A DNA stretch of 64,000 bases, taken from Bdellovibrionales bacterium (GTDB lineage Bacteria > Bdellovibrionota > Bdellovibrionia > Bdellovibrionales > UBA1609). Below the pieces are notes generated by a model. That model was not told the origin of the DNA. It worked only from the letters and a program-made list of their open reading frames with translations, and made no database searches. Of this stretch, positions 18,595 to 52,120 are shown piece after piece (the stretch's first letter is position 1; the number at the start of each line of letters is the position of its first letter). The stretch spans positions 1,120,001 to 1,184,000 of the forward strand of contig CBDCMT010000001.1 in assembly GCA_965219095.1 (NCBI GenBank), written 5' to 3'. A program made the translations under genes and the position numbers.

Positions 18595-18601
18595 GTTACG
18601 T

Positions 18602-19293
18602 TTTATTATTATTTACATTTTTACGTTCTCCATAAGGTTTATATTTTTTCCCAGACTTGAAAACACCTAAAGTTAAAGCTGCAATTCTTCTAGTTGGTAG
18701 CGTTTCTAGCAGTATGTGGTGGTAAATTTTTTTTGATCAATTCTTCATAAAAATCATTAAATTCATTGTTATTTCCTATAACTGAGAGTGCAGCTGTCTT
18801 AAAAACACTTTTCATTTGTGGGCAAAACCTAGACTTCTTAGTTCCATAAGACCTTCCACCACTCATTTTATGTAGCTTTACAAGTCCGCAGTCCACTCCA
18901 CCAGGAATTACGTTTAAATCAGTGAGGCACTACAACCCTATCTTCTTACCTTTCAGAGTTTTTAAATAGGCACGAAGATTCCCAAGATCTGAAATCGTGT
19001 CCATAGTCTTAATATCTTTTGATTTGCCTGTCATCCTTGAAATGGCCATGTTACTTTGTGCCTAATCTACGGCTATATAGTGATCATACATTTTATTTTC
19101 CTCCTTTGTTGGTTGTTCATAAATAAAGTCTTGAAATCCTATTTTACATCTTTTTTTTGCTTTTTCCTTTGAGGCCTTAAAAAGCAGGACAGCTAAAGGG
19201 TTTAGAATTTGTCTCGAAAAGCTCACCTCCTTCTGCAAGTACTTTAGGGTCACTATCATGGCTTAAACCAGTGACCTGTCTTTTTGATTTACC
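18602..19293 (-). pseudogene. IS110/IS1111 remnant with internal deletion and nonsense codon
   Basis: Homologous to 48783-49141 and 51105-51444; MYDHYIAVD followed by TAG; left end joins an IS630-A right TIR (19296-19319). Confidence 0.88.
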
Positions 19294-19448
19294 GTCGAAT
19301 TAATTTCTGTAATTGGTATTACTTGTAGTTTTATAAGAGCTTAGCTTTTGTACTTACTTTTGAAAGCCAGGATTTAATTGTTGTATTATCTCTAGCGACA
19401 TCCTTTCTGGTACTTTTTTATCTGGTACTTTCTTATTTTCCTGTTATA

Positions 19449-24903: not shown

Positions 24904-24914
24904 TTACAGTAGAT

Positions 24915-25644
24915 TATACCATTTCCAAAAATTAATTCGACATTTTTTTAACTCATTGCGTCCTGGCTTTTTGATAAAACTCTGTTAAATTTTTAGAGTG
25001 TCGAAAAAAGATTTAGTTACACAGATTCAAGGGTATAATTTTCTAGCTACTTACAAAGTAGAAAGAAGTGCCAACATCAAGACAAAATTATTGGCTTTGC
25101 AGCATATGCAAGAAGGAAAATCGATTCAAGAAACAGCAGGTATGGTTTTGTATCACCGTCACAGTATCAAATCCTGGTTACAGTCTTTTTTTGTAGACTT
25201 TGATTACGAGGGATTGATAGATCGAGAAGGCAGAGGACGCAAGCCTCGTTTGCCAGTAACAGAAGAAGAGAGGTTCAAAATCAAGTTAGATGAAATTCAA
25301 GACAAAAGAGAGGGAGGAAGCATAGGAGCAAAGGGAATACAGAAACTTTTAGCAGATGAATTTAACTGTTGCTATTCTCTTTCTGGGGTTTATGTTTCTT
25401 TAGACCGCCTTAATATTGTATGGATCAGTGGTCGTTCTCTTCATCCTAAAAGTTCATTAAGAAGCTATGGAACAGTTTAAGGAACATTTTCCAGAAGAGG
25501 TGGAGAAAATAAAAGAAAAGATTCAGACTCATAAAATAGAGATTTGGTGGCAGGATGAATGCAGAATAAGCTCAGCAAGGTTCTTTGAGCAGGATTTGGG
25601 CAAGAAAAGGCACACGGCCTAGAGTTGTGAGGCAAAGACAATTT
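24915..25644 (+). mobile_element. IS630 type A element, 5' part, interrupted by ISL3
   Basis: Left TIR tataccatttcc; HTH ORF 24998-25480; frameshifted continuation WWQDECR...WARKGTRPRVVRQRQF. Confidence 0.88.
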
Positions 25645-31025: not shown

Positions 31026-31336
31026 AATTTGGGTAAATTAATTAAATTAAATTGTGTAACTGATTTTTGTCATTTTAAATTTTAACCTCACTTTTTTACA
31101 CTTATTTTAACCCATCAATCAATTCACACAACAAATAGATATACCTGAAATAAACTTATCTTATGAAAACTTAAACTCACCTTAAAAGAAGTTTTTTTAA
31201 AACCTCCTAACTGAAACTTTTCCTTAAGTCAATTTTAAAATTTTAAATTTGAACATGAAAATGTCGAATTAATTTCTGTAATTGGTATAAACTTTCACAA
31301 AAATACAGGCTTAATCGAAAAAAAGGGGAAACACAC

Positions 31337-31490
31337 CCTTTGAGGCCTTAAAAACCAGGCCAGCTAAAGGGTTTAGAATTTGTCTCGAAAAGCTCACCTC
31401 CTTCTGCAAGTACTTTAGGGTCACTATCATGGCTTAAACCAGTGACCTGTCTTTTTGATTTACCGTTATATGATCTGACAGTTACCCTTT
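31337..31490 (-). mobile_element. IS110 left-end remnant fused to an IS481 right-end fragment
   Basis: Reverse complement of 48783-48911 joined at GT (31465-31466) to the reverse complement of the IS481 terminus. Confidence 0.85.
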
Positions 31491-32256: not shown

Positions 32257-33296
32257 TAGTGCTTCCGCTTAGGTTTTCAGTTTTTTTTGAGTTGAGGTCT
32301 AGTTTTTATTCTAAGGCCTTGATAAAAAATCATTTATTTTTAAAAATAGTTTCATATGTCAGGGTTTCTATCAAAAAAAGAGCGAAAAGATTTACTCTAT
32401 GAACTATCTCTAGAGAAAAATCTTAAATACGTAAAAAGGATTATGACAATTCTCCATTTAGATAAAGGTGAGTTGTGTAAAGATATTTCCCGTTTTCTTT
32501 TCATTGATGAGGGCACGATAAGAGCCTGTAGAAATCGTTATAACAAAGGCGGGATAGAGTGTTTAATCAACGACAATTACAATCCTAAAAGGTCCTTTTT
32601 AACTAAGAAAGAGGAGAAAATGCTTTTAAAGGAATTAGAGAAAAGAATTTTTCCATCATCACAGGCCCTTATTCAGTTCATTGAGGAGAATTTTGGTGTT
32701 ACGTACTTTAACAAGTGGTGTAATTGATCTTCTCCATCGCCTTGGTTTTTCTTATAAAAAAGCCACAGCGATACCGAGTAAGGTAAAGAAAGAAAAGCAG
32801 GAAAAGTTTGTGCGTAAATACAAGAGAATTAAGAAGAAAGACGGTCCTGTTTACTTTGCTGATTCCACACATCCTGAGTGGGGCCCTACGATTTCATATG
32901 GTTGGATAAGAGAGGGTAAGAAGTTTGAAGTGAAGACCAATTCAGGCTGGAGAAAAAGAGTGAATGTTTGTGAAGCTATTGAGATCAATAGTTTGAAGAC
33001 GATAGTCAGGAGTTATAAGACAGTTAACGAAGTTTTTCTATGTGATATGCTCTATCATATTCATTAAGAAGTATTCCGATGAAAAAGAGATTCATCTTAT
33101 CTTAGATGGGGCCGGATACAATAGATCGAAGTCTGTCAAGAAGTTAGCAAAAGAGTTGAATATAAAACTTGTTTATCTTCCTCCGTACTCACCGAATTTA
33201 AATCCTATAGAAAGGCTTTGGAAGTTTATGAAAAAAGAGGTCACGGCGAATCGATATTATGAAAACTATGACGATTTCAAGGGAAGTTTAAGTCAA
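32257..33296 (+). mobile_element. IS630 type B, 3'-truncated copy
   Basis: Near-identical to the 19449 copy, with the same two frameshifts. Confidence 0.9.
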
Positions 33297-33427
33297 TAAA
33301 AAATGGAAAGGAAATGCAGGAAGTTTTTTCTTAGGTGATTAGAATATTCGTGACCGTATGCAAAAAAAAATTTTTATATTTTTTGTAAATGGAGAAGTGT
33401 TTTTTCTTGACATACTTTTTGATAGAT
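33297..33427 (+). mobile_element. IS110 right-end remnant
   Basis: Matches 51712-51841 and is followed by the same actctaaa flank. Confidence 0.88.
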
Positions 33428-48400: not shown

Positions 48401-48645
48401 TAAAACCAGCTCTATATGTCAATGCATCAGAAATCTACTCTCAAAAAGTTTTCCTTTGGTTCCTTGATGAACACAAGGGAGAATTTTTTGCACCTATAAA
48501 GTACAGCCTTAAAGTTCCTAAAAATTGTCTTAGTTTAAAACCTACTCCTTACGGCGAAGGTGATGAATATAAAGCAGTTTTTATGTGCCAAAGAAAAAAA
48601 GACTCCAACATCTTTTGGACCCTTTATTATTACACTTTTAATTAG
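45496..48645 (+). CDS. Secreted S8 (subtilisin-like) serine peptidase with long C-terminal extension
   Basis: VAVIDSG, HGTHVSS, AAAGN, GTSQAAP; aggagg RBS before ATG 45496. Confidence 0.93.
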   Translation: MKQMLIFILCFFFLSLPATIKPHSNFNPYFNDPFFVYQWGLSAQNQIFIKDLTDIKSKKIHISPKASIGFFEPHNQPLTAKMKKEVVVAVIDSGLDISHKDLKGTISLSSDCNELHLPPTGKAHDIKDKDKNGYRGDCMGWNFSVKDGNNKVYDDKGHGTHVSSIISATSNNDEGIASLSAQIKILPIKIFRNTTEKEKSTYREEKENYSIDFSENIIKKAIDYAVSKNVDVINMSFGWPLVIQHPSLTESLQKALDKNITIVAAAGNSHHNAFILPCAIEGVLCVGASNGLGKLAEFSNYGGHVDLLAPGEEIFGALPLSQATYERTFSIPGYGPLTGTSQAAPWVSSAVAFLKGIFPQIQNDEIKARLFLSSSHFDEHKKTLHGLFNLKKAIEVKKNPVIRPIFKSQKEVELINGQAKIKFKLKNYWETTKNSIKISVSTIDPPIQKYSFTYPQGLKNKEIKTISFNLSLPYEWVHSKISLLVSIQEGDGKKEDFFHEVDVFKSFQLFSSQKISIPINHEIQLLLKERFKSKRGITPFFEIGKPSGSPSYYLTKTEEGGTKVFIWKKGRYGLDLKEVFIPNLLNGQGTLSPSLIKYDFNHDGKDDYLISGLSKKHDESNKDFEQTVLFSFFDHNLEPLFKNISHHWKQKFQRIVFRWENPKVRFLTYSFEGEKISLPFLIGRNYPPEKDLLTHPDDAFLNRNRNYIFYLHPVIKRNSQGNEEVILEERILDSYHFMKNLKEKLTLHQKSEKNIPENLNAENPLTTLQFLSLFPQKNKEELKGLLAIGEGGSKKYYIIHWKSKFLENNFKEADYDIRSLDYGNKKLDGNTLQTLFRISKDKVLPSESYVFIRHYKDLEKPSRVLISGSENNSKTASVFTPSFKNKSDRLTYFKKAYETDEHYIVFYESQNQIIAKTIPLSKKDNLENFTRENKEGKTFFKRVIRSALFPDVFFSERLSPLVIKRGTVLKPALYVNASEIYSQKVFLWFLDEHKGEFFAPIKYSLKVPKNCLSLKPTPYGEGDEYKAVFMCQRKKDSNIFWTLYYYTFN

Positions 48646-49494
48646 GGCATGTCGTCAATTAATCTAACCAAACCATAAAGAAGCTAACATAACTTAAAGC
48701 TAAGAAGTGTTTTCTCTTTTTGATAGACATACCGGGAGACCTTTGAGTGCATATTGATAACAATTACAGAAATTAATTCGACGGTAAATCAAAAAGACAG
48801 GTCACTGGTTTAAGCCATGATAGTGACCCTAAAGTACTTGCAGAAGGAGGTGAGCTTTTCGAGACAAATTCTAAACCCTTTAGCTGGCCTGGTTTTTAAG
48901 GCCTCAAAGGGAAAAGCAAAAAAAAGATGTAAAATAGGATTTCAAGACTTTATTTATAAATAAACCAACAAAGGAGGAAAATAAAATGTATGATCACTAT
49001 ATAGCCGTAGATTGGGCACAAAGTAACATGGCCATTTCAAGGATGACAGGCAAATCAAAAGATATTAAGAAAGACTATGGACACGATTTCAGATCTTGGG
49101 AATCTTCGTGCCTATTTAAAAACTCTGAAAGGTAAGAAGATATTGACTATCGAAGAGACTACAACTTCGATAGTGGTTGTATTCAGAATTAAAGGATAGT
49201 GTTGATGAGTTCATAGTCTGTGATCCTCTTCGGAACAAACTTTTAAGTGAAGGGGCTAAAACTGATAAAATTGATGCTGAAAAACTTGTTTTATTGTTAC
49301 GCTCTGGCCTTTTGAAACCAGTTTTTCACTCAGGTGATGAATTCATTTACCTTCGTAAGATTGTCAGTGGGTATGAAGATGTGGTTAAAAGAGGAGTTCG
49401 TGTTAAAAACCAAAGATCAGCTCTGTTTCGAGCTTCCCATCTTGATGCTAAGAAGCAGACTCAATTAAAACGGGCAGAAGAGATATATTTGTTC

Positions 49495-50954
49495 TAGTGT
49501 TCTGACCAGTAAATTTTTTCACAATTTTCAAGCCTTTAATCCAGGTCATTTTATTAAATTATTTTTATATTAAAAAGAATAAAAGTGAAATGTTTAGAGT
49601 TATACCAATTCCAAAAGTTAATTCTACATTTTCATGTATAAGTTTGGATTTTTACTTCTAGAAATTTATAACTTTTAAGTATGGGTAAAGAGTGTATCAA
49701 ATTCATTGGAAAGATATGATTTTCTAATGTTTATATACAATTTAGTTTACAGGCTCTTACAGGCTCTTACAGGCTCGTCTCATTTTTTATAATGGAACTT
49801 TTCTCTGGCTGATTTTCTTGAAAAATTCCATTTTATTATAATCTTCCGTCTGTTCATAATATTCACCCAAGCCTTGGTTCTTTTTCTTAAAGTTTCTATG
49901 TCAGGTATTCTTGATTTTCCTAAACATTGACGAGAGTACATATTGATTGCAATTTCTGCTTGATTTAACCAACTTCCATGACTCGGAGTATAATGAACCT
50001 CAAAGCGAGACCATAGATGCAAACCTCGATCTTTTCCATAAAAATCAGTAAGACTTTTTTTTCTATGAGTGTTCAAATTATCCATAACTAGAACAATCTT
50101 CTTGGAATCAGAATAATGTCTCTCAACAGAAGATAAAAACTTAGCAAAATCCGGACCTGTCCTTCTCTCTGTTACCTTATTCATATAAAAACCTCTCTTA
50201 GGCTCCACAGCACAGAAAACATTTGCTGTACCCTCTCTTTTATACTCATAATCTACTTTTTTTACTTCCGAGGGATGACAACCCGATGGAGGACGAACAT
50301 CATCAAGTAACTGAAGAGGCTTTTCATCAATACACACAACAGGCTTTCCTTTAATCGGAGGCTTCTCATACACTTTCAAAACATCCTCCATCCTCTCTAT
50401 AAATTCATCATTAAGCTCTGGTACACACCAACTCTTCTGTTGCCAAGGTTTTAGATCATGTTCTAAAAGAATAATCCTAACTTTTTCTTTGCTAATAGAG
50501 TCTACAATCTTGTTTTTTTCTGCCCTCTCTTTAATGAGCTCTAAAGTCCATCGATCAAAGCCCTCCGGAGGATCTGAGCAGACTATAGCTATAATCTTTG
50601 ACTTTATGCGATCATCAAACTTTGGAGGTTTTCCAGGACGAGGATCATCTTCAAGAGCTTTTTTCAGCCCAGAATTCTCATAGTTTTTTTGGATGTTGAA
50701 AACAGTTCTAGGAGTTATCTCTAAGTAATCTGCTGTCTCTATGGCAGTTAAATTTTTGTTCCTTAAGTTTAGAACATTGGCTCGATATATGGCTCTTGGA
50801 TTTTTAGACTTCTTTATAATTTTAAGAATTTCTCTCTTATCTTTTGGCTTTAATAAATTTAACATATGAGTATTAAAACATAAAAAAAAAATAAATAAAA
50901 TGACCTGGATTAAAGGCTTGAAAATTATGAAAAAAATTACTGGTCAGAACACTA
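49495..50954 (-). mobile_element. IS630 type C element
   Basis: ~59-bp TIRs gtgttctgaccagtaa...; TA duplication within CTAG. Confidence 0.93.
49780..50865 (-). CDS. IS630-family transposase (intact)
   Basis: PPEGFDRWTL, CIDEKP, DYEYKREG, VMDNLNTH, TPSHGSWLNQAE. Confidence 0.95.
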   Translation of the reverse strand: MLNLLKPKDKREILKIIKKSKNPRAIYRANVLNLRNKNLTAIETADYLEITPRTVFNIQKNYENSGLKKALEDDPRPGKPPKFDDRIKSKIIAIVCSDPPEGFDRWTLELIKERAEKNKIVDSISKEKVRIILLEHDLKPWQQKSWCVPELNDEFIERMEDVLKVYEKPPIKGKPVVCIDEKPLQLLDDVRPPSGCHPSEVKKVDYEYKREGTANVFCAVEPKRGFYMNKVTERRTGPDFAKFLSSVERHYSDSKKIVLVMDNLNTHRKKSLTDFYGKDRGLHLWSRFEVHYTPSHGSWLNQAEIAINMYSRQCLGKSRIPDIETLRKRTKAWVNIMNRRKIIIKWNFSRKSAREKFHYKK

Positions 50955-51498
50955 GAAGGCTTAGATAAAGCTATCAGTTCTTATGGGGAGGAGAAAGCAC
51001 GTTATGAAGCAGAGTTTAAGAGGCTAAGTAAAAAACACAAAGATATTAGAAATCTTAATAGCATTCCAGGAATTGGTTCTATCAAGGCTATCAAGATTGT
51101 AGCCAGGGTTGTAGTGCCTCACCGATTTAAACGTAATTTCTGGTGGAGTGGACTGCGGACTTGTAAAGCTACATAAAATGAGTGGTGGAAGGTCTTATGG
51201 AACTAAGAAGTCTAGATTTTGTCCACAAATGAAAAGTGTTTTTAAGATAGCTGCACTCTCAGTTATAGGAAATAACAATGAATTTAATGATTTTTATGAA
51301 GAATTGATCAAAAAAAATTTACCACCACACACTGCTAGAAACGCTACCAACTAGAAGAATTGCAGCTTTAACTTTAGGTGTTTTCAAGTCTGGGAAAAAA
51401 TATAAACCTTATGGAGAACGTAAAAATGTAAATAATAATAAAACAACCTTATAAAATCATCTGTTTAAAGTTTCTTGCATAGTAAGTAACAATACAAA

Positions 51499-51713
51499 TA
51501 ATGACTTTATGAGGTGAGGATAGATAGCTTAATAAAAATGATATTTATAAAAAATTCATTTCGACGAATAGCACATCCTCTATTCCTAAAATTTACTATA
51601 ATCTAAGGTTTTAAATCTTTGGAATAAATTCATGATTTAAAACTAAAAAAGGTTCATATAGACGAATAATAGGAATATGTTTGTTTTACAATGTGTAAAG
51701 GAAGAGTCATTAA
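51499..51713 (+). ncRNA. Putative bridge/seek RNA of the IS1111-type element
   Basis: Closing stem taatgact/agtcatta; hairpins gaggat/atcctc and tattccta/taggaata, each carrying TTCAT-[N6]-GAATA with N6 matching the target flank and the element right end. Confidence 0.75.
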
Positions 51714-51841
51714 AAAATGGAAAGGAAATGCAGGAAGTTTTTTCTTAGGTGATTAAAATATTCGTGACCGTATGCAAAAAAAATTTTTTATATTTTTTGT
51801 AAATGGAGAAGTGTTTTTTCTTGACATACTTTTTGATAGAC

Positions 51842-51925
51842 ACTCTAAAAATTTAACAGAGTTTGATTAAAAAGCCAGAGGCTATGCGTTAAAAGAATGT
51901 CGAATTAATTTTTGGAAATGGTATA
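51842..51925 (-). mobile_element. IS630-A left end flanking the IS110
   Basis: Reverse complement of 16166-16250. Confidence 0.88.
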
Positions 51926-52120
51926 ATTATAGGCTTTTACTTGAAATGAAAATCAATTACACAATTTGATTGATAGACTTAGGATCTGATTTACAGAATC
52001 TTTACAAACTCTAAGCGGGCTTCCTTATGTTGGCTACCCGCTTTATTTTTTTCTTTAAATCTGTTCTTATGATCACACTACTACTTTTTGAACTCTATAC
52101 ATACAATTTTACTTCGCATA

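Follow-up and report, generated by a model that had tools for sequence, protein, structure and literature searches.

An IS110-family element between the two ends of an IS630-family element

How did an IS110-family element come to lie between the two ends of an IS630-family element whose own interior is missing? At positions 48758-51923 of the window (the whole 64,000-nucleotide stretch of DNA that was analysed), the right terminal inverted repeat (TIR) of an element that we call IS630-A is followed by an IS110-family element and then by the left end of IS630-A, whose interior of ~1.3 kb is absent. The composite is made up of the following features.

48758..48782, + strand: IS630-A right TIR, 25 bp, outer end first, ending in TTCGAC
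48783..49496, + strand: IS110-family element, left part; the left end GGTAAATC starts at 48783
48788-48796, + strand: subterminal repeat of the IS110 left part, ATCAAAAAG
49497..50952, - strand: nested IS630-family element (IS630-B), terminal repeats of ~55 bp
49780-50865, - strand: IS630-B transposase, DDE_3, 361 aa
50953..51841, + strand: IS110-family element, right part, with the C-terminal half of the recombinase (frames 1, 2, 3)
~390 bp up to 51841, + strand: IS110 non-coding right end, ending in GATAGAC
51821..51841, + strand: right terminus, with a -35-like TTGACA at 51821-26 and terminal AGAC; the right end reads ...TTGACATACTTTTTGATAGAC
51829-37, + strand: subterminal repeat of the right terminus, CTTTTTGAT
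51842..51923, - strand: IS630-A left end, 82 bp, bounded on the inside by the split GTG start codon and including the left TIR at its outer edge
51899-51923, - strand: IS630-A left TIR, 25 bp

The placement of IS110 between the two IS630-A ends had been put forward in the sequence-only reading and is confirmed here; the nested element, the broken recombinase frame and the position of the right-hand cut outside any terminal repeat are additional to that reading. The left flank (48758-48782) reads TAACAATTACAGAAATTAATTCGAC, with two changes from the right-TIR consensus TACCAATTACAGAAATTAATTCGAC, and the right flank (51842-51923) is the reverse complement of the first ~85 bp of IS630-A, the uninserted copy at window 24908-24999 serving as the reference for this end. 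In the uninserted copy the cut falls within the GTG of the transposase (minus strand, 24990-25009, TTTTTTCGAC/ACTCTAAAAA, with the slash marking the cut here and below), and TTCGAC can be read directly in the window at both cut points on the same strand. We refer to the cut at the right TIR as site 1 and to the cut in the start codon as site 2; the latter lies 82-90 bp inside IS630-A and is therefore not within a terminal repeat. The outer flanks of the composite are TGA on the left and TAA on the right, and are not identical.

IS630-B splits the IS110 element and is flanked by a TA duplication (49495-96 and 50953-54). IS110 copies that lack the interruption read ...TTGTTCTAGAAGG... at this point, and contigs of four sequencing runs contain the joint of 49493 to 50952 that corresponds to IS110 copies without IS630-B. 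The window copy would have been split by this second IS630-family element after the composite had formed, and is probably now a decaying relic.

IS630-A has 25-bp terminal repeats (TACCA(A/T)TT...AATTAATTCGAC), and the 354-aa ORF of one copy (L007) matches PF13358 (DDE_3) with 91.5 bits as well as PF13592, PF13565 and PF13384. Full-length copies are flanked on both sides by T[A/T]A triplets that are mostly identical, a TA-centred duplication of 2 or 3 bp, and 18 of the 50 full-length copies retain open frames of at least 350 codons.

The IS110 element and the state of its recombinase

The N-terminal recombinase domain PF01548 (DEDD, RuvC-like) gave 17 matches in the genome, 15 of them above the cut-off. 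The match at window 49234-49428 scored 29.7 bits (cut-off 29) and that of a copy with an unbroken N-terminal part (L011) scored 36.4 bits. For PF02371 (Transposase_20), the window fragment at 51148-51354 reached 16.7 bits, below the cut-off of 21.3, and two intact relatives, L013 and L015, reached 43.2 and 54.8 bits; these relatives are 81% and 72% identical over the N-terminal 133 aa. The window recombinase starts at 48987, the frame of its left part is broken (frames 3, 1, 2) and the gene is interrupted several times over its length. All long IS110 copies checked have a frameshifted recombinase gene. An extra base is present at the first frameshift site in all 17 matching copies, and the one copy without it is truncated. 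The occurrence of a common frameshift suggests that any later IS110 transposition depended on a recombinase that this genome does not show, or else that gene conversion spread the lesions common to the copies.

Comparison of empty and occupied sites revealed that nothing is duplicated upon IS110 insertion, with only GAC common to TTCGAC and the right end ...ATAGAC. The subterminal inverted repeats (ATCAAAAAG and CTTTTTGAT) lie 5 and 4 bp from the element ends; subterminal inverted repeats of 7-17 bp are given for the IS1111 group in the section of PMC11208160 cited here. Non-coding DNA extends ~390 bp 3' of the last recombinase match (51442), compared with a 204-bp leader upstream of the gene (264 bp in the long form). 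A circle joining the IS110 ends would give a promoter-like TTGACA-N17-TAAATC, and no such circle joint was present in the contigs of the sequencing runs examined.

IS110 insertions at two sites of IS630-A

IS110 had been proposed to target IS630 ends, and a genome-wide junction census bears this out for IS630-A. The right TIR precedes 24 of the 39 IS110 left termini and the start-codon site precedes four of the 39, while the 37 right termini are followed by the IS630-A left end in 14 cases and by the interior near the right TIR in seven. Because the copies are kin, independent IS110 insertion events are far fewer than these junction counts. Both TTCGAC sites are real IS110 insertion sites, at which simple insertions with both cognate flanks occur. 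Unoccupied IS630-A sites are also present in the genome, 92 at site 1 and 30 at site 2.

Where the two ends of an IS110 copy could be paired (n = 10), we found four simple site-1 insertions (two of which represent one duplicated locus), one simple site-2 insertion and two composites. One IS630-A (C2:1421797-1423889) holds an IS110 at each of its two sites, in direct orientation. Insertions at one site or the other, double occupancy and the composite all exist in the genome, supporting the earlier suggestion that insertion at both sites was followed by recombination. The reciprocal junction was found nowhere in the genome.

Candidate guide sequences in the IS110 right end

The non-coding right end contains short segments that match the DNA on either side of the cuts.

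51532..51540, + strand: predicted guide for the top strand (T), ATAAAAATG (version A), complementary to the DNA right of the right-TIR site, C/ATTTTTAT
51559..51565, + strand: predicted guide for the bottom strand (B), TTTCGAC, which also stands directly left of the cut at both IS630-A sites
51566-51585, + strand: conserved hairpin directly 3' of guide B, GAATAGCACATCCTCTATTC
51655..51663, + strand: predicted donor-side guide, consensus CAGATAGACG, mutated to ATATAGACG in the window copy

The scaffold is conserved across 21 copies and the two hexamers alone vary, giving versions A (n = 7), B (n = 9) and C (n = 2). In all version A and B copies the second hexamer is TTCGAC, the sequence to the left of both cuts. 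The first hexamer of each is exactly complementary to the six bases to the right of one IS630-A site: AAAAAT (version A) fits TTCGAC/ATTTTT at the inner edge of the right repeat, and TAGAGT (version B) fits TTCGAC/ACTCTA in the start codon. Version C (AATAGC and GTTAAC) is found at a site 10 bp in from the end of an rve-type (IS481/IS3-like) insertion sequence, of which 42 unoccupied copies are present in the genome. The donor-side consensus CAGATAGACG corresponds to the IS110 right end extended by one base, the first of the left end. From these correspondences we infer that an RNA made from the right-end region may guide insertion.

At present, guide versions and flanks no longer correspond consistently, which counts against this explanation. 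Only five of the 11 version A and B copies with an informative flank are cognate (one A at site 1 and four B at site 2). The other six comprise three A copies beside the left end and three B copies beside the interior, two of the latter being one duplicated locus.

An Rfam 15 scan of window 48600-52000 at E <=1 returned no bridge-RNA family, and two microRNA matches at chance level. For the guide region, the minimum-energy fold does not surpass those of shuffled sequences (z = -0.76), and we therefore claim no structure.

Relatives of the element in other genomes follow the same guide-to-flank rule. A core-anchored complement of at least 7 nt to the right flank was found in 13 of 25 own pairs, compared with 22 of 552 mismatched pairs, and a left-flank match of at least 5 nt in 16 of 25 own pairs, compared with 93 of 552. 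At the level of sequence, the top-strand match lies 5' of the bottom-strand match, the guide order that bears on membership of the IS1111 group, and the ends of the relatives are the same as those of the window IS110. The exact 19-nt scaffold hairpin had no match in genome contigs and one unrelated, GC-rich match in metagenome contigs. A DNA search of 30 other genomes of the same family or order yielded no copy, and one match of 30 nt (E = 5e-4).

The left-end leader was also considered as a guide and was dropped in favor of the right-end segments because it showed no consistent covariation with the flanks across 44 left ends. Its hypervariable stretch (~48848-48866, ...GGTGAGCTTTTCGAGAC) contains TTTTCGA. 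In one variant copy the left leader reads GGTTAAC, like the copy's own left flank.

Loss of the IS630-A interior

The following reading accounts best for the locus, and we put its probability at roughly 0.75, jointly with the assignment of the element as an IS1111-type member of the IS110 family of 1,594-1,654 bp with a putative guide RNA gene in the right-end non-coding region. An IS1111-type IS110 would have been programmed for insertion into IS630-A, with the TTCGAC hexamer matching the DNA to the left of the cut and the second hexamer pairing with the DNA to the right. Once an IS630-A carried IS110 in the same orientation at both of its sites, the two copies would recombine, by the homologous route or through the IS110 recombinase acting on the second TTCGAC site, and the 1.3-kb interior would be removed, leaving the right TIR, IS110 and the left end. 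The chimera would then be copied to new sites by the IS630-A transposase in trans, despite its dead IS110 recombinase. What the genome itself shows are the junctions, intermediates, guide-like hexamers and markers common to copies; the recombination route is our inference.

The interior could instead have been lost in one step, if a single IS110 at one TTCGAC site recombined its own junction with the second site 1.3 kb away. Its own guide and recombinase would then excise the interior as a circle, and neither a second IS110 nor homologous recombination by the host would be involved. This would explain why the window copy and two other composites carry version A and yet adjoin the left end, as a site-1 IS110 whose right junction recombined with site 2 gives exactly version A beside the left end, and the left-side hexamer TTCGAC fits both sites. 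IS110 recombinases are reported to carry out programmable excision when donor and target are on one molecule (the relevant part of PMC11208160), and recombination at half matches appears in the abstract of a 2026 preprint. However, the doubly occupied IS630-A provides an available substrate for ordinary homologous recombination, the markers along the IS110 right end are mosaic among copies, indicating frequent recombination between them, and version B is also found at left-end junctions (four copies, one of them the simple site-2 insertion). The mosaic pattern makes the crossover point unreadable, and deletion in one step and homologous recombination are indistinguishable from sequence. We consider the one-step route unlikely.

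Probable spread of the chimera as a unit

The composite retains both IS630-A terminal repeats and lacks the transposase gene, and autonomous partner copies are present in the genome. With both repeats kept, the IS630-A transposase could copy the chimera in trans, and we consider that it most likely did so. Support for spread as a unit is provided by a marker, T27 (GATTAAAAAG), located 27 bp outside the cut and present in the IS630-A left end of the window copy. T27 occurs in 11 of 14 occupied left ends and in only one of 35 empty ones (Fisher p = 1.4e-7). The outer flanks of the copies all differ.

The idea of a mobile composite, raised in the sequence-only reading, has indirect support: copies at different loci have markers in common, but no empty site was found. 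No locus in the genome matched both outer flanks of either of the two complete composites, for all 38 outer flanks the left and right flank are adjacent nowhere else in the genome, and the contigs of the four sequencing runs (one study), which bridge the outer junctions of the composite, contained no presence/absence joint for it. These results would also be expected if each chimera had formed in place by independent insertions and recombination and had never transposed, in which case the T[A/T]A triplets at the flanks would survive as a legacy of the original IS630-A insertion and a paralogous empty site would not exist. In addition, one uninserted IS630-A has a rare right-TIR variant (an extra T) that is also found in three IS110-occupied right TIRs, one of them in a complete composite. 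Set against formation in place, T27 lies beyond plausible guide contact and marks occupied left ends at different loci. A single unoccupied left end carries it, and an independent origin would require that a T27 subfamily had nearly vanished in its uninserted form. We regard formation in place without any transposition as rather improbable.

A different order of events, in which a deletion between direct TTCGACA repeats first produced a 110-bp miniature and IS110 then entered the recreated TTCGAC/ACTCTA, is still harder to sustain. Short IS630-A derivatives do exist (350 bp and 89-94 bp), and version B would fit the recreated junction perfectly. However, the empty deletion junction (AATTAATTCGAC/ACTCTAAAAATT) was not found in the genome at <=2 mismatches, in contrast to the 92 and 30 empty parental sites, and both complete composites carry version A, which is unfit for the recreated junction. 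The 89-bp element at C2:492428 holds 14 bp of the IS110 left end; it therefore descends from the composite by deletion, rather than being its precursor. We judge the miniature-first order very improbable. Chance or an assembly artefact is ruled out by the recurrence of the junctions at many loci and by short-read contigs that span them.

Comparison with known systems

IS1111-type elements that aim at the repeats of other mobile elements are already known, and no new mechanism is revealed here. The sequence-only reading had suggested that the case may be new; the targeting of other transposons' ends by IS1111-type elements is familiar, and the novelty is limited accordingly. Partridge and Hall in 2003 reportedly described IS4321 and IS5075, of the IS1111 group, as inserting at a fixed position in the 38-bp repeats of the Tn21 family. 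Like these, the present element is of the IS1111 type: it has subterminal repeats, its recombinase gene is followed by a long stretch of non-coding DNA, and its insertion into the terminal repeat of another transposon occurs at a single position and in a single orientation. Unlike these, it targets an IS630-family element, the cut is at the inner edge of the repeat so that the full 25-bp repeat is left outside, a second, reprogrammed site lies in the host start codon, and the insertions gave a chimera that was seemingly moved by the host transposase.

MITEs and 'transporter' IS are non-autonomous IS derivatives with passenger DNA. As in those, the two repeats of an autonomous IS flank foreign DNA here and would move it in trans, but the passenger in this case is itself a site-specific, putatively RNA-guided IS whose own choice of target made the arrangement.

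According to the portions of PMC11208160 (IS621) and PMC11187229 (ISEc11, ISPa11 and ISKpn4) cited here, bridge RNA and seekRNA systems use two short guide segments that overlap at the cut, one equal to the left target and the other complementary to the right, and a second, constant loop matches the joined ends of the element; the predicted segments of the present element are alike in each respect. In IS1111-type seekRNAs the top-strand match comes first and the RNA is located at the right end (the same portion of PMC11187229), with which the guide order and placement found here agree. Unlike those systems, the present element is known from sequence alone, its recombinase is frameshifted in all of the long copies checked, and its genome has at least three guide versions, all three aimed at other insertion sequences.

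The IS1111 of Coxiella burnetii inserts in the palindrome of the QMITE2 miniature element (PMC5896051, cited in part), so that there too the landing site of an IS1111-family element is a repeated sequence derived from a mobile element. Unlike IS630-A, QMITE2 is a non-autonomous repeat with no known transposase, and the part of PMC5896051 cited here describes neither replacement of an interior nor joint mobilisation.

Implications

It is possible, though we offer it tentatively, that this lineage has specialised as a hyperparasite of other insertion sequences. Its guide versions would be directed to points slightly internal to the repeats of IS630-family and rve-type (IS481/IS3-like) elements and would leave the host ends usable; three base changes in a single guide hexamer would have retargeted the element from the IS630-A right repeat to the start codon, and the chimera would multiply on the host transposase after its own recombinase died. 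If so, target choice among RNA-guided IS elements could be selected for hitch-hiking as well as for safe landing sites.

Bridge/seek-RNA elements are now in use for genome engineering, and this genome offers a natural, internally controlled case of guide reprogramming among them, with one scaffold and at least three guide versions that each fit a different site in other mobile elements. It also illustrates an outcome of such targeting, namely the replacement of the interior of one insertion sequence by another and the apparent spread of the chimera by the host enzyme. For annotation, the composite explains the recurrent side-by-side IS110 and IS630 fragments in this IS-rich, Bdellovibrio-like genome.

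Structure of the composite and its parent elements

At the window locus, an IS110-family element lies between the two ends of IS630-A, in place of the IS630-A interior. Direct reading of the layout and comparison with an uninserted IS630-A copy bore out the description of this locus in the sequence-only reading. The features are:

48755-48757, + strand: flank TGA, outside the IS630-A right repeat
48758-48782, + strand: IS630-A right terminal repeat, 25 bp, with TTCGAC at its end
48783-49496 and 50953-51841, + strand: IS110-family element, in two parts
49497-50952: IS630-B, a separate IS630-family element nested in the IS110
51842-51923: IS630-A left end, reverse complement
51924-51926, + strand: flank TAA, outside the IS630-A left end

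The right cut splits the GTG start codon of IS630-A, reading AGAGT/GTCGAAAAAA (slash, cut point) at 24995-25009 on the + strand of the uninserted copy (from 24908). IS630-B, which encodes a DDE_3 transposase of 361 aa and has repeats of about 55 bp, interrupts the IS110 at a TA. Compared with an intact relative's recombinase, the frames of the window IS110 run 3, 1, 2, IS630-B, 1, 2, 3. IS630-B carries a 10-bp unit (CAGGCTCTTA-like), repeated three times in tandem (49749-49778), downstream of the stop codon of its transposase; a form shorter by 10 bp was seen in contigs of all four sequencing runs, presumably from other IS630-B copies.

IS630-A measures 1,405-1,414 bp, is bounded by 25-bp repeats and encodes a 354-aa transposase with HTH domains and a DDE_3 match of 91.5 bits. 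Fifty copies in the genome are full-length; in 18 of them a frame is open for 350 codons or more, and most of the 50 have T(A/T)A on both sides. The IS110 element measures 1,594 bp, or 1,654 bp where the leader bears a 60-bp hairpin, and its own N-terminal domain matches PF01548. Intact recombinases of 335-339 aa, matching both PF01548 and PF02371, are found in relatives from other Bdellovibrionota and Ignavibacteria assemblies; these relatives share its ends, reading GGTAAAT... and ...CATAGAC. Subterminal repeats (ATCAAAAAG / CTTTTTGAT) are present in the element, as is a non-coding stretch of about 390 bp 3' of the recombinase gene; such repeats and a long non-coding region past the gene are described as IS1111-group features (PMC11208160; PMC11187229).

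The leader hairpin is perfect (CCTTTTTTTCGATTAAGCCT...AGGCTTACTCGAAAAAAAGG) and present in many copies (locus L008 is an example of the long form). It is absent from eight, including the window copy (its place is at about 48905-48912); seven of these adjoin an IS630-A right repeat and one follows ...TCTAGAC. Another leader stretch, at 48848-48866 (GGTGAGCTTTTCGAGAC, holding TTTTCGA), varies among copies far more than its neighbouring sequence, with no consistent link to the flanks among the copies compared.

IS630-A ends as targets of the IS110 element

Probes for both IS110 ends, allowing up to 3 mismatches, identified 39 left and 37 right termini in the 3.11-Mb genome, counts that take in a few related sub-lineages.

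Flanks of IS110 termini in the genome
Left terminus; IS630-A right repeat; 24/39
Left terminus; ...AAATCTTTTTTCGAC (start-codon site); 4/39
Left terminus; ...CAGATCATATAAC; 4/39
Left terminus; other flanks; 7/39
Right terminus; IS630-A left end; 14/37
Right terminus; IS630-A interior beside right repeat; 7/37
Right terminus; GTCTATTAC...; 5/37
Right terminus; GCATTAAG...; 3/37
Right terminus; other flanks; 8/37

That IS110 targets IS630 ends had been proposed from the sequence alone, and this genome-wide junction census agrees, with the right repeat and the start-codon site flanking 24 and 4 of the 39 left termini. Unoccupied copies number 92 for site 1 (TTCGAC at the inner edge of the right repeat, against the interior) and 30 for site 2 (TTCGAC in the start codon, interior against left end). 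The empty deletion junction (right repeat against left end) and the reciprocal junction each have a count of 0 in the genome. Other insertion sequences truncate most copies, and therefore only 10 left-right terminus pairs lie within 9 kb of each other. Four of the 10 are simple site 1 insertions, two of these being one duplicated locus; one is a simple site 2 insertion (C1:307487-310843; C1 and C2 are contigs of this genome); two are composites, the window copy and C2:1748053-1749756; and three have mixed or other targets.

Insertion of IS1111-group elements into the repeats of other mobile elements was already known: IS4321 and IS5075 land in Tn21-family repeats. The same is described for Coxiella IS1111, which lands in the QMITE2 element (PMC5896051). 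Among the papers listed by literature searches on IS110 insertion into IS630 or other IS ends, none mentioned such a chimera or a target of the IS630 family in its title or abstract opening.

Further IS110 remnants lie in the window. A minus-strand fragment at 18600-19320 adjoins an IS630-A right repeat (19294-19320), and a right-end fragment at 33291-33426 has an IS630-A left end interrupted 8 bp in, by an insertion that starts with bases similar to the end of the rve-type IS described below. A solo 25-bp stretch like the IS110 right terminus (GTGTTTTCTCTTTTTGATAGACA), without 10 bp of the consensus, is found at 48706-48730, 27 bp upstream of the composite and directly past the stop of a gene for a 1,056-aa S8-like protease; similar stretches with identical upstream sequence are at C2:2152723, C2:1952883 and C2:1427751.

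Predicted guide sequences match the two sites

It is established that IS110 and IS1111 elements choose their targets with RNA guides (PMC11208160; PMC11187229). We examined 25 elements, two from this genome and 23 kept from 79 related loci because they had both a recognisable right end and a left end 1,400-1,700 bp upstream of it. For 13/25 own pairs the right-end region held a core-anchored stretch of 7-10 nt complementary to the right flank, compared with 22/552 mismatched element-flank pairs; a left-flank match of at least 5 nt was present for 16/25 compared with 93/552. Where both were present, the left-flank match in most cases lay 26-60 nt downstream of the top-strand match, an order like that described for IS1111-type seekRNAs, in which the top-strand match comes first (PMC11187229).

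The right-end non-coding stretch is kept in 21 copies, with a conserved scaffold (TAAT-NNNNNN-GA...TTCAT-NNNNNN-G, then hairpin AATAGCACATCCTCTATTC) that varies at two hexamers only. Sixteen copies have TTCGAC as the second hexamer. In seven of these (version A) the first hexamer is AAAAAT, complementary to ATTTTT on the right of site 1; if neighbouring bases are included, 9/9 pair with C/ATTTTTAT. In the other nine (version B) it is TAGAGT, complementary to ACTCTA on the right of site 2, with 8/8 pairing to C/ACTCTAA. Versions A and B differ from each other at three positions, exactly those distinguishing site 1 from site 2. Version C (AATAGC / GTTAAC) occurs in two copies, one adjoining GTCTATTACAC. 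This sequence sits 10 bp in from the end of an rve-type (IS481/IS3-like) insertion sequence, of which 42 copies are unoccupied. In all three versions a second similar loop reads CAGATAGACG, equal to the IS110 right end plus the first base of the left end, and is the predicted donor-side guide. Among 11 copies with version A or B and an informative flank, guide and flank are cognate in 5 and non-cognate in 6, the latter pointing to exchange between copies or half-matched insertion.

The rve-type end holds a third IS110 target (ATCATATAAC/GTCTATTACA), as in the unoccupied copy L092 (G000:C1:227000-229800), and a 23-bp remnant of that end (window 31465-31487) adjoins a truncated IS110 left end (31336-31464). 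Miniature IS110 derivatives without the recombinase gene, L093 (G000:C2:1616800-1617450, minus strand) and C2:625690, have the guide scaffold fused directly to about 30 bp of left end. In one miniature the hexamers are TTTACC / TCTATC and fit its own left junction (..GCTATC/GGTAAATAG), not an external target; its donor loop, GATAGAT, is like the right ends of its sub-lineage.

Formation and probable spread of the composite

Single insertions at both sites would yield a doubly occupied IS630-A and from it the composite. All stages needed by this model were found in the genome (single insertions at each site, double occupancy and the product), an unusually complete set of intermediates. The doubly occupied copy (C2:1421797-1423889) consists of right repeat, IS110, IS630-A positions 23-1322 and a second IS110 left end, truncated after 51 bp; the two IS110s have the same orientation, and the first is internally deleted and carries guide version A. 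At the second (G000:C2:1423826-1423846) the junction reads TTCGAC-GAC-GGTAAATC, with one extra GAC, the three bases common to the target and the IS110 right end.

The interior may have been lost by homologous recombination, or the recombinase may have acted on the second TTCGAC site; the sequence fits both routes. Version A is found beside a site 2 flank in both complete composites and one more left-end-flanked copy, consistent with a crossover within the last 270 bp and also with a one-step reaction, and right-end markers are mosaic among IS110 copies. The landing site could instead have been a pre-existing miniature IS630-A, but the zero count of the deletion junction means that the genome holds no empty copy of it.

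As to the spread of the composite, T27 (a T at left-end position 27 from the cut) is present in 11/14 IS110-occupied copies of the 82-bp left end compared with 1/35 unoccupied copies (Fisher p = 1.4e-7), a test that speaks only to kinship of the occupied left ends. This position is well outside the roughly 14 bases readable by the guides. A second left-end marker, GGAGGC, behaves like T27 in roughly half of the occupied copies. No two of these copies share their outer flanks, which differ starting at the first base beyond the repeat. These data are most simply explained by the copying of one IS630-A::IS110 lineage, repeat to repeat, into new sites by the IS630-A transposase. An 89-bp miniature (C2:492428-492516) fits spread as a unit, as a product of continued chimera decay: its IS630-A right repeat is followed by the initial 14 bp of the IS110 left end and by an IS630-A left end with GGAGGC. 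It apparently formed by deletion across a shared AAAAAG, and has TTA on one side and TAA on the other. Composite C2:1748053 has TAA on each side and the window copy TGA and TAA; such triplets would also persist after formation in place and alone prove nothing. No empty-site paralog of a composite was found in the genome.

The extra base at the first frameshift site is present in 17/17 copies matching there; the sole copy without it (C2:522034-522803) is truncated. We found no full recombinase gene in the genome and only two PF02371 matches. The lesions are either older than part of the spread or were homogenised via gene conversion; if older, that spread relied on the IS630-A transposase or a lost helper.
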